IMG/VR virus record: IMGVR_UViG_3300024999_000049
Coordinates: 32,001 to 96,000 of that record
DNA: 64,000 nucleotides
Source: a virus
Direction: 5' to 3' (one strand)
Shown: positions 552 to 37,700 of the stretch, piece by piece
How the letters are laid out: every line of letters begins with the position of its first letter
How positions within the stretch are numbered: the stretch's first letter is position 1
Notes under the pieces: generated by a model
What the model saw: the letters and a program-made list of their open reading frames with translations, nothing else
What the model was told of the DNA's origin: nothing
Databases searched by the model: none
Program-made: the position numbers and the translations under genes

Positions 552-946
552 ACAATATCCTCCAATTTTTAATAAAAGTGTTATTTTATTGTATTATACA
601 AACATTACAAGCACAGTCTAAACACTCTTTGCAGCATCCAGAAGCCTCACAATCATCTGCATCTATTTGCATAGTCTTAGTAAACTTTTTAACTATGTAG
701 TTATTTTCTTGGAGAAGCTTAATTGCAGCCATCAATTCTTTATCCATTCTTCTTATCATTCCTTTCGCAATATTTTTGTCCTATTATGTACAGAGTTTTT
801 CTCCACTCAAATTCATCTTTACATCCGGTAGAACAAACGTCTCCGCCACAATATGTAAAATCAGTCATAAATTCTTTACCACAAATACAACAAATCATTG
901 GTTGCTTTGTAAACATATTTTATTCCTTTCTTATAAAACTAAGATT

Positions 947-1981
947 TTATTCGTTCAGCTCATTAAGATTAATTGCATATTGCTTGAAACTTATTTGTAA
1001 TTTTTCACAAATAGAAAGAAATACACTAAATGGTATTTTCGATTTTTTTCTTATTATTCCGTCGATGTATCCTTTAGTCTTTTCTATTTTAATTGATATT
1101 TCTGCTAAATAATTAAACTTATATTCTTGCAATTTCCCATAAAACTTATCATAATCAATAACATAATATGGAATATTGAAAATTTTACAATAATTCAATT
1201 TAATATCTTCAATGCCATTAACTACACCATGCACACCTTTCTTAACATAACATCCATATTTCTCTAGTAGACTTTTTGTAATGTCATTAATAAGAATATT
1301 TTCATTTTTCAATATTGTATCTATATTATTATAAAACTGATCATAGGTTTTATTTGTCTTTACGATATCTTCTTTTTTAAATATCCCTGGAAAAACATAG
1401 TCTATATAATTAAAAAATCCTTTAAAAAATCTCTCTCCGTATTCTAGCCCATGTTTACTTAAAAACAAACTAGTTACATATTCAGGAATTTTTTCTTGAG
1501 ATATATTTTCCTCATTCAATACATCTAATAATTTATTCCGATAGTATTCTTTTTTATCAGTTTTTTCATGATACTCTTTTAGATTTGTTCCGCTTTTATT
1601 TTTCGTCAAATATGCTTCAAGATCAAAAGTGTTTTTGCCATATATTTCATTTAAAGCGTTTGATAAACTCCCAAAATAAGTAATAATTCCATTAATCTTG
1701 TATGTTTCGAAAAAACCTCTTTTATAAAAATCATAAATTTCATCAAAGTTCTCTACTTGCTTGATCTCAAAAAATACATAAGTTAAAATTATATAAGCAT
1801 TAATTAAACCGTCTTCTCCATGAAAAAAGAAATGTGGATATCTTTGTATAGTACCATCTAACTTATTTTTATATATAAGTAATATCTCATCCCTATAGGT
1901 TTCGAAACTTGTTACAGAATCAAATTTAGTTCCTGCATATTTTGCATATAAAGATTCATAAATTAAGTCTTTAAACACCAT
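947..1981 (-). CDS. Hypothetical protein, possible C-terminal HTH
   Basis: 344-aa ORF with AGGAG RBS; C-terminus (LAEISIKIEKTKGYIDGIIRKK...CEKLQI) is XRE-HTH-like. Confidence 0.6.
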   Translation of the reverse strand: MVFKDLIYESLYAKYAGTKFDSVTSFETYRDEILLIYKNKLDGTIQRYPHFFFHGEDGLINAYIILTYVFFEIKQVENFDEIYDFYKRGFFETYKINGIITYFGSLSNALNEIYGKNTFDLEAYLTKNKSGTNLKEYHEKTDKKEYYRNKLLDVLNEENISQEKIPEYVTSLFLSKHGLEYGERFFKGFFNYIDYVFPGIFKKEDIVKTNKTYDQFYNNIDTILKNENILINDITKSLLEKYGCYVKKGVHGVVNGIEDIKLNYCKIFNIPYYVIDYDKFYGKLQEYKFNYLAEISIKIEKTKGYIDGIIRKKSKIPFSVFLSICEKLQISFKQYAINLNELNE

Positions 1982-2482
1982 ATAATTTCTCCTTAAATAT
2001 TAAAATTATAATAAATTATAACATATCCTAATCACCTATTCTTTTATTTTTTATATGGAATTATTAACCTTTTCTAAAAATTAATATTATAAATGAAGTA
2101 TTTTATTAACTTTTTACATTTTGACACACAAATTCATCGCATCCATCAAATGCATTTTTATTGCTATTATCTAATTCACAAACACCTTCACCTTTATATA
2201 TTTGCTCTCCATCAAAATTTGTTTCTATTCTACCATAAAAGTGCTTACAGTTATCACATATTGCATAACAACCTTCTCCACATTTTTTCATTAAGTTACC
2301 TCATAAACCAAATATTTTATTGAAAAAGTTCTTCAAATTCATTGGCACCAGAATTTCGCTCTTCCAGTTCCACGATTCCCAACATACAATTATCACAAAT
2401 ATCAAATCTATCTTCCGGTAAATCCTCACCGCAAATAAAACATTTCATTTTAAAGAACCCCTTTCCGAATAAAAGTTATCTT

Positions 2483-33880: not shown

Positions 33881-34741
33881 TTAATTTTCTTCCACTTTCT
33901 CAAAATCTTTAATTCCCAGTATAAAATTAACTGCTTTTTGCGCTTGTCCTGCTGCAATTGTTATCATTCTGTTATCATTTTTTAAAGCTTTTAACCAACT
34001 TTGTAAATATGCAACAGTGTTTTGAAATACTGCTGTATTATCAATTCCAACAGTATTATTTAAATATGCTGCTCCAATTTCTGCACATAACTCTTCCTTT
34101 GAATAGTCTTTACTACCAAATTTATGAGACATCATGCTGTTATGTCTTTTTAGCCGTTTGTCATTCCCTGTACTATGTGTTAATTCGTGGAACGCTGTAC
34201 TGTAATATGATTCTGGCTTGTCAAATTGTTTTATGTCTGGCATAACTACAGTATCATTTACAGGGGAATAATACGCTCTGTCACTTCCTGTTATTATATT
34301 ATAATTGATTTTTTCTCTTGTAATATAGTCATTTATTACTTTTTCTGCCTCTTTTATAATGTTATGTTCGTTCTCGGGCGTAAAAATGTCGCATTTTGTT
34401 ACTATGTCTTCACACTGGGAAATGTGAAACACATTGTAATATTTTAATAATGGGTAAGATTCTTTTTTACCTGTTAATGTATTTTCCTTTTCATACCAAT
34501 TATAGTATACAATCATAGAAGATTTTTCACCCTTTTTGACTGATCCTTTAATGTCTGATATCTGTTTAAATGTTAAGTATTCGCCGGGAAATGGCAATAG
34601 CATTAAGTTTATTCCTTTGTATTCCTTGCGTGTTATGTAGTTAATTGCCTTTTGTCCTTTCCAGTTTTTAACCCATGGAATGTTTCCTTTTTCAAGTTCC
34701 GATATAATACGGTCTGTTACATACTGATATACTTGTGACAT
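33881..34741 (-). CDS. ardC: ArdC-like ssDNA-binding antirestriction protein with zincin-like domain
   Basis: VTDRIISELEKGNIPWVKNW, Y.GIN, YNVFHISQ, AYYSP..D, AFHELTHSTG, YSKEELCAEIGA. Confidence 0.9.
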   Translation of the reverse strand: MSQVYQYVTDRIISELEKGNIPWVKNWKGQKAINYITRKEYKGINLMLLPFPGEYLTFKQISDIKGSVKKGEKSSMIVYYNWYEKENTLTGKKESYPLLKYYNVFHISQCEDIVTKCDIFTPENEHNIIKEAEKVINDYITREKINYNIITGSDRAYYSPVNDTVVMPDIKQFDKPESYYSTAFHELTHSTGNDKRLKRHNSMMSHKFGSKDYSKEELCAEIGAAYLNNTVGIDNTAVFQNTVAYLQSWLKALKNDNRMITIAAGQAQKAVNFILGIKDFEKVEEN

Positions 34742-34797
34742 TAAAATACACTTCCTTTTTAATTTTATTTTTTGTTATAGATTGAAGGATATTATAT

Positions 34798-37700
34798 TTA
34801 TCTAATTCCCAATTCCATTTTTAATCTTTTTTCCCAGTCTATCGGCTTGACATGTATTTCATTTTCCATTTTATCAACTATAATTGATTTACTTCTCTGT
34901 GATTTTAATTTTAAGGTATCACCAATATTATAGTTTTTTCTGACTTTACCAATGAGATATAAAACTCCGTGACCTTTAAAATATATTTTTATCATTTTTT
35001 TTTTCATTCCTTTCTATATTATATTTATTTGCTTTAATAAGCTTTAAAACCCATAACTTTTATGTATTGCTGTTATACTGTTTACAGGTTTTAAAGGGTA
35101 TTAAATACCCTTAGAATCATTTAAATTTTTTAGTACTTTTATTGCAGATTCTTTTTTACTAACTTCAAACAATCTTAATAAAAATTTTTCTTTTAACGAA
35201 ATTATTGTTTCAATTGATTCTACATCAATATTATACAATTTGCTGATATCCTGCATTATTTCTGCTTTTGTTTTGTTATAGTGTGGCATAATAGAGTTAA
35301 CATATTCACCATTAATAATTAAAGTATAAATTCTTCCTGACTGATAAATTTTATTCATTGCTAAAATCACTCCTATATTTTAGTAGTAAACTGTTATATT
35401 GTTTACTCTATGGCTACACACCATATTATTATTGCTGTTTTATGGTGTGCGCTAACAGTAGACAAAATCATTCGCATTGAGATATCAAAAAATTACAACA
35501 ACCTTGCTTTCTCAATTCTCTTGCATTATCATGAGCTTCAAGCCACGAATTAAATTTTTCTTGATAATTAAAACCGTTATTGTCGGAATAATCTAAATAA
35601 TACATTTTTACACCTTCTTTCCTTCTATTTGTTATAGAAAATTATAATCTTTTCATTAATCCATTAGAGGAAATAACTTCAAAGCGGAAATTTTCGCCAG
35701 TGTTAGTAATATAACATTTTCCGCGAATAGTTCCACAATCACAGTCTTTCATTCCGCATAATGCATTATTAATTCTATTGTCCTGTGATTGTGTCAATCT
35801 AAATGTTTTTGTTTGCTCATTGTAATTGATTATTACATTACATTGAGTATTGTGGAAATTGTTTACAAGAGTAACTTTTAAACGTGACATATAATTACCT
35901 CCATGCTTTAAGGATAAGCATACCTTTAATTTTAAGTACTATTATGTACTTTATAAATTATACCATAGATATTAACCAGACTATGGCATAATCAGATAAA
36001 AAACATAAAAGCAGGTCATAAAAACTGGATTTTATCGTGCCTTTATTTCTTGTGTGCTGTTATTGGTTAAATCGTGAAATATAGCTGTAAAATCCTGATA
36101 ATTGATTCTTAATTCAATATTCATTGTTGCAAGTGTATCTTTTATTGCTTCAATTTGATTAAACATTCTTGTTTTTACTTCCTTTTTTCCTGCTACTTTT
36201 GCAATTGTATTGTCCTTGTATAATGTAAGTTTTCTTTCGATAAGGTTTATTAAATTTTCGTTATAGTGTGCTAACATTTTTATTCTCCTTTATGTTTTAT
36301 ATTTGTTCTTCGATTATGATACTTGCCATTAAAACCATAAAATTAAAATCTTCAAAATTTGTTTCATCTTCTGTAAAATTTTCTAACATAATTATTTTTG
36401 CTTCTTCTGTGCGATTTTCATCAAGAGCTAAAACATCTAAATAATTTTTATCTTTATCTAGTGCTTCAATGCTGTTATAACGTTCCCATATTAATTTTTT
36501 ATCGAATTCTGTTAATGTCATATTTTAAACTCCTTTCATAAAGTGATTAAAAGTTATATTTTATCGTGTTATTGCTATTCTTCACACCATGTAATCATAT
36601 AATCAATTCCGTCAATTAATCCTAGTTTATTAGCTGCCTGTATTGCTTCTGATTCTGTTTTATAAAGCGTTGTGTTTTCAATTGGCATATCGTTTATCAT
36701 ACTTGTTATTTCATATGTTATAACTTTTCCCATTAACATGTAGTCACAAAAATTGTCAATGTCTTGCTGTGTTAATATCTCGTAATTGTTATCAACTGTT
36801 ATTTGTACTAGATTTTTTTCGAAGTCAAAATCGGAATCAAAGGACAAACTATCATTAGTAAAAAATTCTTTCAATGCTTCATGGAATAAAATGTCATTTG
36901 ATTTACATTTTTCGTGATAGATTATTTCTAAATTTGTCATTGTGTTATACCCTTCTTTCATTATAAATTTTAATAGTCATAGTGATATGAAAATCTTACT
37001 GTTATATGATTTTTAAACTTTTTGACTTTTACATACCTTGCGAAACAATTTCCTGTACAATCATACATAGAGTTAATATGGTAATATTCATTATGTAAGG
37101 AAATACCATGCTTATAAAAATACCTTATTACCTTTTTAATATCTGCATGATTAAAAGTATAATGTGTTATCCTTGTATCACTGTTACCTGTATTTAATTC
37201 TCTTATCATACCATATTCAGTATTTGTTATTTTGCATTTATCACAGTAGTCATTTATACCATTGAATAACTCAAGGTAATTTTCATATTCTTCTTCACTT
37301 GTTAATGTAAATGTCATTTCCTGTTGATGTCCACATTTTTTAAATTTGATATTACGAGTTTTAATTTTTGGGTTTTCAAGTGTTATCATTGACATTGTTT
37401 TATCCCTCCATAAATTTATTTTAATCTTATTTACATACTATGTAAATATTCCAGTGTATAAATTGTTATTGCTTGACTTGTTATACACTGGAGAAATACA
37501 TACTATATTAATTAGTCCAAAAGTCTATTTTATAAGTATCATTTTCTCTTGTAAAAACCATTTTACTTTTTCCGTCATTAATGTTTAAACAATAACTTTT
37601 GTTATCTTGTAGGTTGACAATTTTATTTGTTGTTTCCTCAGATAAACTAAAATTTTTGCATACTGTTTTAATGTTATATGCCGGAATTCTTTTTTCAATC

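Follow-up and report, generated by a model that had tools for sequence, protein, structure and literature searches.

Large phage genomes often look like mosaics, and the question raised by the left arm of one of them is whether a short inverted repeat standing between many of its small genes marks the points at which gene modules are exchanged, or serves some other purpose. The stretch under study, hereafter the window, comprises 64,000 nucleotides (bases 32001-96000) of IMG/VR record IMGVR_UViG_3300024999_000049 (120,193 bp; G000), with a guanine-plus-cytosine (GC) content of about 28-29%, and the element is an 18-bp site, ATAAAA-N6-TTTTAT, in which two inverted 6-bp arms enclose a 6-bp centre. 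The original prediction, made from the letters of the window, had read these sites as an integron-like array of promoterless gene cassettes, possibly served by a recombinase encoded within the arm, with a repressor operator or a short RNA hairpin as alternatives. Alignments within the SPbeta group show the site to be a preferred junction for gene-module exchange between related phages. As to its nature, our tentative reading, to which we give a probability of roughly 0.4, is that a protein binds the site and modules cross over there, perhaps through the action of the intact Xer-like recombinase.

Base skews and the open reading frame (ORF) map place a strand switch near 42 kb of the window, with minus-strand genes before it and plus-strand genes after it. 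The minus-strand arm carries ~158 genes in the whole record, mostly small, and the plus-strand arm encodes a YonO-type single-chain RNA polymerase, a beta-CASP nuclease-like protein and terminase. Exact copies of the site number 18 in the window against 0.43 expected, and none of 100 dinucleotide shuffles reached 18; the original prediction had counted 16 copies and estimated less than one by chance, so that the strong excess was borne out and only the count was low. With up to one mismatch there are 39 copies against 6.8 expected (largest shuffle, 13), 36 of them within 572-36564; since 6.8 are expected, chance may account for a handful of the 21 copies with one mismatch. When spacings from N0 to N15 were scanned, N6 gave the 18 copies and any other spacing 0-2. 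Over the whole record 26 exact copies were found, 25 of them in the minus-strand arm, in agreement with the claim that late genes are almost free of sites, whereas the supposedly site-free regulatory core at 4.7-8.6 kb holds an exact copy (7882-7899). Alignment of the sites confines the information to the 12 arm bases and leaves the centre free. The site is dyad-symmetric, with 6-7 bp conserved per arm in this phage, its half-sites decay independently, and covariation in flank or centre is absent.

The sites occupy the gap between the stop codon and the ribosome-binding site (RBS) of minus-strand genes, at about one third of the gene junctions of the small-gene arm. Followed along transcription, a site in most cases starts at or on the stop codon of the preceding gene, the next start codon lies 8-25 nt beyond the site end in 33 of 55 cases, and the Shine-Dalgarno sequence (SD) often begins 2-3 nt past the site. 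Among pooled sites, G stood at +3 in 100 of 196, and 172 of 196 exact sites lay between co-directional genes. The fixed register of stop codons that had been described was correct in its positions, as TTA, the minus-strand TAA, stands at site start +14 for all 17 genes listed (7 exact sites, 6 with one mismatch and 4 with two). The register exists, however, because the arm itself contains TAA: an in-register stop was found in 20 of 55 arm sites, near the 1 in 3 that reading frame by itself would give. The stops do lie within an arm of the site, but the genes are on the minus strand, and for this reason it is the first arm along transcription that carries them.

The centres behave differently from the arms. 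All 18 exact copies in the window have different centres, as the original prediction had stated for the copies it counted. Across six genomes, pairs of sites sharing a centre within one genome, in either orientation, numbered 0 where position-wise composition predicts 7.17, and none of 2000 simulations gave zero such pairs; palindromic centres were likewise missing from 196 sites (4.68 expected, P=0.008). Unique, non-palindromic centres are as expected if they form the crossover region of a tyrosine recombinase and a genome is to keep its integrity despite 20-50 sites, and neither an operator nor an RNA element predicts them.

The motif extends far beyond the window. When viral contigs were scanned for pairs of sites separated by 270-300 bases, 34 loci were found, and exact copies were numerous in genomes of 138 kb (G006, 53 copies), 122 kb (G008, 32), 133 kb with terminal repeats (G009, 17), 168 kb (G010, 55), 127 kb (G015, 13), 120 kb (G016, 34) and 131 kb (G017, 20), as well as in the 141-kb Geobacillus virus E3 (G019, 17), with 3 copies in a further genome of 138 kb (G018); G007, an identical part of G010, was dropped from the counts. 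A reversed-pattern control gave 0-1 copies in G006, G008, G009 and G010, where only N6 was enriched, and 0 in G015-G019; an N6-specific excess was present in six genomes overall. In Bacillus phage SPbeta, 13 copies are exact (control 1) and 25 have one mismatch, most of them between early yop-yot genes, some of its sites lying in convergent or divergent gaps or distant from any RBS. Clostridium phage c-st also has 13 exact copies (control 1), and phiCD211 shows no enrichment (1 site, control 1). In a Paenibacillus genome, 37 of 39 copies fall inside one prophage-sized stretch of 123 kb, whose centres are matched by those of G016, and in an Oceanobacillus genome 11 of 13 copies lie within 108 kb that encode a YonO homologue with 51% identity to that of the window. 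A host feature was rejected, as copies in host genomes are confined to such prophage-sized blocks, and contigs of Okeania, Methanolapillus, Chitinophagales and Psychromonas that matched the two-site pattern proved to be unrelated tandem repeats. By its distribution, the motif is a hallmark of SPbeta-like large Firmicutes phages.

The genomes compared have only distant core genes in common with the window (YonO 32-34%, terminase 40-47%, recombinase 27-31% identity), and 12 bases kept over such very deep divergence indicate a conserved protein partner. With the YonO query used, four motif-bearing records gave no match, which argues against a simple link to this polymerase. The consensus of G010 is longer, AAACCAC-ATAAAA-N6-TTTTAT-GTGGTTT (13+6+13), without site-by-site covariation, and was seen in that lineage only. 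Five relatives that share a YonO-like polymerase (G001-G005, 52-61% identity) contain neither the motif nor another palindrome family with 5- or 6-mer arms; these records are 12-70% complete, and G001-G003 have a GC content of 33-43%, richer than the window. No relatives of a 664-amino-acid arm protein were found in the viral_contigs collection.

Mosaic junctions were examined in SPbeta and its relatives, which are 91-98% identical with mosaic differences, because the window's phage yielded no close relative (a megablast search of the phage collection with window 8000-20000 returned none). Two SPbeta regions, 83.0-100.9 kb and 110.0-134.1 kb, were each aligned with four relatives (from Goe13, Goe11, SPbetaL8, phi3T and Goe14), giving eight stretches. 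Fifteen of 76 unique breakpoint clusters lay at most 6 nt from an SPbeta site (uniform null 1.7%, p=3e-12), and counting the sites of the relative as well brought this to 18 of 76. Against a null of annotated intergenic DNA, which predicts 9.7%, the observed 14 of 56 was still in excess (p=7e-4). When each genome served as reference, with gene calls made for this analysis, 9 of 10 reference/region comparisons were significant, with about 20-35% of clusters at sites and ~5% expected. The expectation that breakpoints among relatives fall at the sites was therefore upheld for a several-fold enriched minority of the junctions, often at the very edges of the site, and 58 of 76 lie elsewhere.

Viewed base by base, identity sets in with the first base of a site at SPbeta 83687, 86073, 92393, 95128 and 99496 and stops at or within the right arm at 86091, 86899 and 88416; at 87603 it stops where the left arm meets the centre. 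One site keeps the same centre but is joined to another left neighbour in Goe13 and to another right neighbour in SPbetaL8. Between SPbeta (NC_001884, 83687-86899) and phi3T (KY030782, 76354-79566), a 3,213-bp block covering yopW-yoqD is 100% identical, has two sites as its borders and unrelated flanks, and stands out from the other common parts, which are 91-96% identical; on this evidence it looks like a recent transfer. An extra gene of Goe13 lies between one good and one degenerate site.

The window phage's own population and paralogues point in the same direction. The DNA of the window is present in groundwater metagenome runs, all of one study. In run X1, 5 of the 6 contig ends listed between 8.9 and 16.1 kb touch sites (8997, 11282, 15240, 15838 and 16079), and in run X2 contig ends at sites were found at 2086, 9014, 13247 and 15884, with other X2 ends not at sites. 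Contig ends mark branches of the assembly graph, and coexisting variants therefore seem to part at sites. Among contig joints, all but one had a shorter side of at most 40 letters, and these were not counted as excision products. Two paralogues of the record (5275-5562 and 11613-11900) share ~83% similarity from the RBS through the downstream site, and the similarity stops at both flanking sites, whose centres differ. As a separate observation, summed contig depth in X1 was 564 at 2669-3335 and 248 at 17343-18009 of the window against ~17 elsewhere; these two segments are probably common to a far more abundant organism or phage in that sample.

The recombinase at 6535-7413 was correctly described as intact. 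It is Xer-like, its nearest solved relatives being XerA (1e-34) and XerD (1.5e-32), with IntI4 at 6e-20, and by alignment all six catalytic residues are present (R148, K172, H236, R239, H262 and Y271). Intact Xer-like recombinases with the R-K-H-R-H-Y set were found in all five uncultured genomes compared, and Phage_integrase-family proteins are encoded in all five motif-bearing records tested, E3 among them. In a separate search, relatives of the window's protein reached 28-33% identity only. This particular recombinase is weakly linked to the sites. Its neighbours at 4875-5813 and 5842-6453 gave no informative match in Pfam, PHROGs and PDB sequence searches.

Considering these results, we propose a model in which a phage-encoded dimeric protein would recognise both 6-bp arms of the double-stranded site. 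Tyrosine recombinases of the Xer/YopP kind, for example that at 6535-7413, supply the likeliest candidate, and strand exchange would take place at the borders of the centre. Since each centre is unique and asymmetric, exchange may be productive only with the matching 'address' of a co-infecting relative, so that modules would be swapped between genomes without deletion between two sites of one genome. Heterospecific lox and FRT sites, which were engineered for cassette exchange, have arms of 13 bp and a centre of 8 bp, and among them only like centres recombine. The combination of identical inverted arms with differing centres is common to both, and the phage sites would be the natural counterpart of such cassette exchange. 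In its widest form, which we consider rather doubtful, the model would describe a family-wide grid of addressed sites in SPbeta, Geobacillus E3, c-st and many uncultured phages, with the same arms throughout, the centres as position labels, and a tyrosine recombinase that swaps modules with a co-infecting relative and leaves its own genome unscrambled.

Several observations weigh against a dedicated crossover site. The 58 of 76 junctions that lie off-site imply that sites are not needed for exchange, the second SPbeta-referenced region was not significant by itself (4 of 37, p=0.11), and breakpoint clusters and comparisons are not independent because the relatives share ancestry. The enrichment over non-coding DNA could stem from 6-bp microhomology together with survival of recombinants broken between functional units, and selection against perfect 18-bp repeats could give unique centres too. 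The SPbeta-specific yoqR-yoqS insertion meets a site at one end only. Laboratory evolution of phi3Ts with SPbeta placed 15 of 16 recombination sites in homologous regions, according to the accessible text of the report (10.1101/2020.05.06.055103); the single non-homologous junction mentioned there, 'following yosA', could lie near the SPbeta site at 116414. In the phi3Ts-SPbeta hybrids Hyb1 and Hyb2, the junctions of the examined region fall in homologous DNA or consist of a tandem duplication and are uninformative on the sites; a tandem duplication of ~115-140 nt relative to phi3Ts lies near yorX at ~6687-6940 of Hyb1phi3Ts-SPbeta (L179). On the enzyme's side, 6-7 conserved bp per arm are short for a tyrosine recombinase, and such recombinases are common in temperate phages anyway. 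No one recombinase lineage follows the motif: E3, with 17 sites, gave no match to the window's recombinase, and the matches in Oceanobacillus fall outside the motif block.

Among the other explanations, the repressor operator of the original prediction remains a live and strong rival, somewhat less probable than the crossover site. A dimeric phage regulator would act inside transcription units as a roadblock, silencer or early-arm insulator, and dyad symmetry, a fixed spacer, independent half-site decay and missing covariation all suit a dimeric DNA-binding protein, as does the concentration of sites in the arm with sigma-A-type promoters and their near-absence from the late arm. The link with junctions would then be a by-product, in which the shared 12 bases give microhomology and recombinants broken there survive; that most junctions are off-site would fit. 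Precedents exist in stoperators (PMC9283540) and in the palindrome of Cluster O mycobacteriophages, present in more than 30 copies (PMC4351075), as far as the available portions of these papers describe them. An operator does not predict unique, never-palindromic centres, and in Cluster O 29 of 34 sites have TTT or AAA as their centre; nor does it predict junctions on both edges of the site, and in the available part of PMC4351075 the Cluster O authors report few if any repeats at indels. The regulator already known in this family seems a poor fit as well, since the master repressor MrpR of SPbeta gives 10 ChAP-seq peaks at SPBRE promoters (PMC10516654, accessible text) and the motif common to 9 of 10 MrpR-peak promoter regions, re-derived here, differs from the site, so that identity with SPBRE was rejected. 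If the sites are operators, they would belong to an unknown global early-gene regulator of the SPbeta family. An RNA-level element, AUAAAA-N6-UUUUAU placed 5' of the Shine-Dalgarno sequence and protein-bound or nuclease-cut to tune translation or stability gene by gene, is improbable. The distances to SD and start codon, the G at +3, the prevalence of co-directional gaps and the beta-CASP ribonuclease-like protein of the phage speak for it. However, predicted hairpins are weak (-0.3 to -5.4 kcal/mol for 10 of the 18 exact copies folded, the arm hairpin failing in 1), arm sequence is conserved and not pairing, with no compensatory change, and Rfam gave no match at gathering score within the window. 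The SPbeta sites at convergent or divergent gaps or far from an RBS do not suit such an element, the beta-CASP gene is not common to the other motif-bearing genomes, and both the unique centres and the junction enrichment would go unexplained. For the same weak folding and missing compensation, a stable self-folding RNA hairpin or terminator was rejected, and the short hairpin put forward originally is unlikely.

The literal integron-like system, with promoterless cassettes captured and excised singly at attC-like sites by the integrase at 6535-7413, appears very improbable. Its unit layout, with a stop in the site and an RBS after it, is real, one duplicated gene is bracketed by sites, and the extra gene of Goe13 could be counted in its favour. 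Integron attC sites are long imperfect palindromes with conserved core sites that recombine as a folded single strand. Here there is no such palindrome and no conserved core past the AT-rich arms, neither attI nor a Pc promoter lies beside the recombinase, and the latter is nearer to XerA and XerD than to IntI. Nor is the array free of promoters, as strong sigma-A-like promoters matching the consensus at 12 of 12 positions stand within the array. The one-ended yoqR-yoqS insertion and the lack of a well-anchored joint in the run contigs point the same way. What survives of the cassette array originally proposed is an array of sites that is family-wide, stands at module boundaries and is enriched at mosaic junctions; the strict integron form is not supported. 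Chance or the base composition of an AT-rich genome is a negligible explanation: 28% GC does bring about 7 one-mismatch matches, and AT-rich symbiont genomes gave chance matches to the two-site pattern, but the exact-copy excess in the window, the N6-specific excess in six genomes and the reversed-pattern control stand against it. Two promoter identities were also rejected. The site contains no -35/-10 of a sigma-A promoter, and conserved TTGACA-N17-TATAAT repeats exist separately; it is no YonO late promoter, as no site lies in the SPbeta yonK-yonN gap, where the start is a published one and the coordinate mapping approximate.

Sites of the Xer-dif type, including pdif, have ~11 conserved bp per arm. 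The present sites share with them two inverted arms, a strict 6-bp centre and an intact Xer-family recombinase, and fall short in the arms, which have 6-7 bp here and a 13-bp consensus in G010 only. In the pdif modules of Acinetobacter plasmids, as set out in the accessible text of PMC6449649, many inverted-arm sites with a 6-bp centre in accessory regions likewise flank modules that recur in different replicons, and have a Xer-type recombinase as presumed enzyme. They differ in being served by the host XerC/XerD, whereas the candidate enzyme here is encoded by the phage, the sites occur in phage DNA only and each copy has its own centre. The PeSL cassettes of T4-type phages are similar in that a short repeat separates small, non-essential genes in a hyperplastic region, and close relatives differ by gene insertions, deletions and replacements located at it, to judge from the available part of PMC2839356; this was also found in the SPbeta group, and contig breaks in the window's population agree. 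A PeSL is, in the same source, a sigma-70 promoter with a terminator hairpin that recombines by homology, whereas the present site has its promoters elsewhere, a hairpin too weak for an effective terminator, and 12 shared bases.

Cluster O mycobacteriophages carry more than 30 dyad-symmetric 17-bp sites, mostly in short co-directional gaps, for which a dimeric DNA-binding protein was predicted (PMC4351075, in part); their 7+3+7 layout contrasts with 6+6+6 here, as do the uniformity of their centres and their scarcity at indels. Stoperators of Cluster A are spread similarly, as tens of repressor sites across transcription units in short gaps, and according to the accessible sections of PMC9283540 are asymmetric, monomer-bound and oriented with transcription, whereas the present site is symmetric. 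SPBRE comes from the same phage family and is a repeated intergenic element bound by a protein of tyrosine-recombinase fold (PMC10516654, accessible text), with about 10 promoter sites and a 15-bp motif unlike the site described here. A string search, an SPbeta review and a preprint (10.1101/2021.11.22.469490) yielded no paper naming the motif, a survey that did not cover the 1999 SPbeta genome paper.

Table 1. Sites and other features of the phage record (window coordinates unless marked as record; X1 and X2, metagenome runs).
Feature	Position	Strand	Remarks
Exact site	572..589	.	Plus-strand centre GTGTTA; TAA of upstream minus-strand gene in register
Exact site	933..950	.	Stop in register
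One-mismatch site	2089..2106	.	X2 contig end 3 nt before (2086)
One-mismatch site	2303..2320	.	Stop in register
Exact site	2469..2486	.	Stop at start +14
Exact site	3320..3337	.	Stop at start +14
Exact site	3611..3628	.	Stop at start +14
Exact site	4178..4195	.	Downstream of 12/12 sigma-A-like promoter (4282>4254) and hairpin
Exact site	7882..7899	.	In 'regulatory core'; within or next to small ORF 7820-7975
Exact site	8997..9014	.	X1 and X2 contigs break precisely at site end
One-mismatch site	9168..9185	.	
Exact site	9352..9369	.	
Exact site	9651..9668	.	Stop at start +14
Exact site	11282..11299	.	X1 contig overlap stops inside centre
One-mismatch site	11941..11958	.	Stop at start +14
Exact site	12785..12802	.	
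Exact site	13041..13058	.	
One-mismatch site	13250..13267	.	Stop at start +14; X2 contig end 3 nt before (13247)
One-mismatch site	13982..13999	.	
One-mismatch site	14232..14249	.	Stop at start +14
One-mismatch site	15240..15257	.	Stop at start +14; X1 contig overlap stops at 17th base
Exact site	15643..15660	.	
One-mismatch site	15838..15855	.	First base is start of an X1 contig's last 30 bases
One-mismatch site	16079..16096	.	Stop at start +14; an X1 contig's first 30 bases end inside
One-mismatch site	17183..17200	.	
One-mismatch site	19989..20006	.	
One-mismatch site	22602..22619	.	Could be chance
Exact site	23016..23033	.	Stop at start +14; then TATAACAG and RBS
One-mismatch site	24120..24137	.	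Then 12/12 sigma-A-like promoter (24065>24037)
One-mismatch site	25123..25140	.	Stop at start +14
Exact site	26557..26574	.	
One-mismatch site	28672..28689	.	
Exact site	30670..30687	.	Stop at start +14; then 12/12 sigma-A-like promoter (30609>30580)
One-mismatch site	32134..32151	.	
Exact site	36018..36035	.	Stop at start +14
One-mismatch site	36547..36564	.	
Xer-like tyrosine recombinase, 292 amino acids	6535..7413	-	Candidate partner of sites; Pfam Phage_integrase 3e-40
Sigma factor, phage-encoded	8031-8606	-	Sigma70_r2 4e-12, PHROG 351
YonO-type single-chain RNA polymerase	50051-52864	+	Pfam RdRP 1.3e-11; SPbeta YonO 24% identity
Beta-CASP / RMMBL nuclease-like protein (RNase J/CPSF type)	54113-55546	+	
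~60-nt promoter copy	record 31514-31586		Left of window
~60-nt promoter copy	record 7407-7458		Left of window
~60-nt promoter copy	record 24928-24988		Left of window
~60-nt promoter copy	record 16147-16213		Left of window

Besides the sites, the small-gene arm contains promoters of its own. The window has three 12/12 consensus sigma-A-like promoters, all on the minus strand, and a conserved strong sigma-A-type promoter of ~60 nt (TTGACA-N17-TATAAT with a conserved start region) occurs in four copies in the arm, two of which adjoin a palindrome. In window 23000-40000 only (for example 23034-23060, 26575-26600 and 32152-32175), many genes have a second short element, (T)ATAACAG(G/C), ahead of the RBS and after the palindrome or the stop codon. 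The two arms share one gene segment, inverted between them (record 81250-81642, plus, and 26496-26885, minus; 71% nucleotide identity), and a weaker pair of this kind lies at record 81079-81217 and 5605-5743. The phage-encoded sigma factor was not detected in the other motif-bearing genomes compared, and a metagenome scan with it found no relative. A 176-kb fecal phage record has a gene with 45% identity to the beta-CASP protein, and phage c-st has a fragment with 37% identity, which is broken by an insertion sequence. In the relative G001, the YonO homologue takes the form of two open frames (63692-65377 and 66232-67305) and may be split or interrupted.

Whether the joints of phage mosaics arise as random accidents that selection then filters, or are produced at special linkers, is an old question. 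The motif is present in SPbeta, which is tractable in Bacillus subtilis, and stands at joints several-fold more often than other non-coding DNA does, which makes this question directly testable. Should the sites prove to be genuine recombination addresses, they would account for the free trade of accessory, defence and counter-defence genes among these phages, and would offer a set of orthogonal recombination sites.

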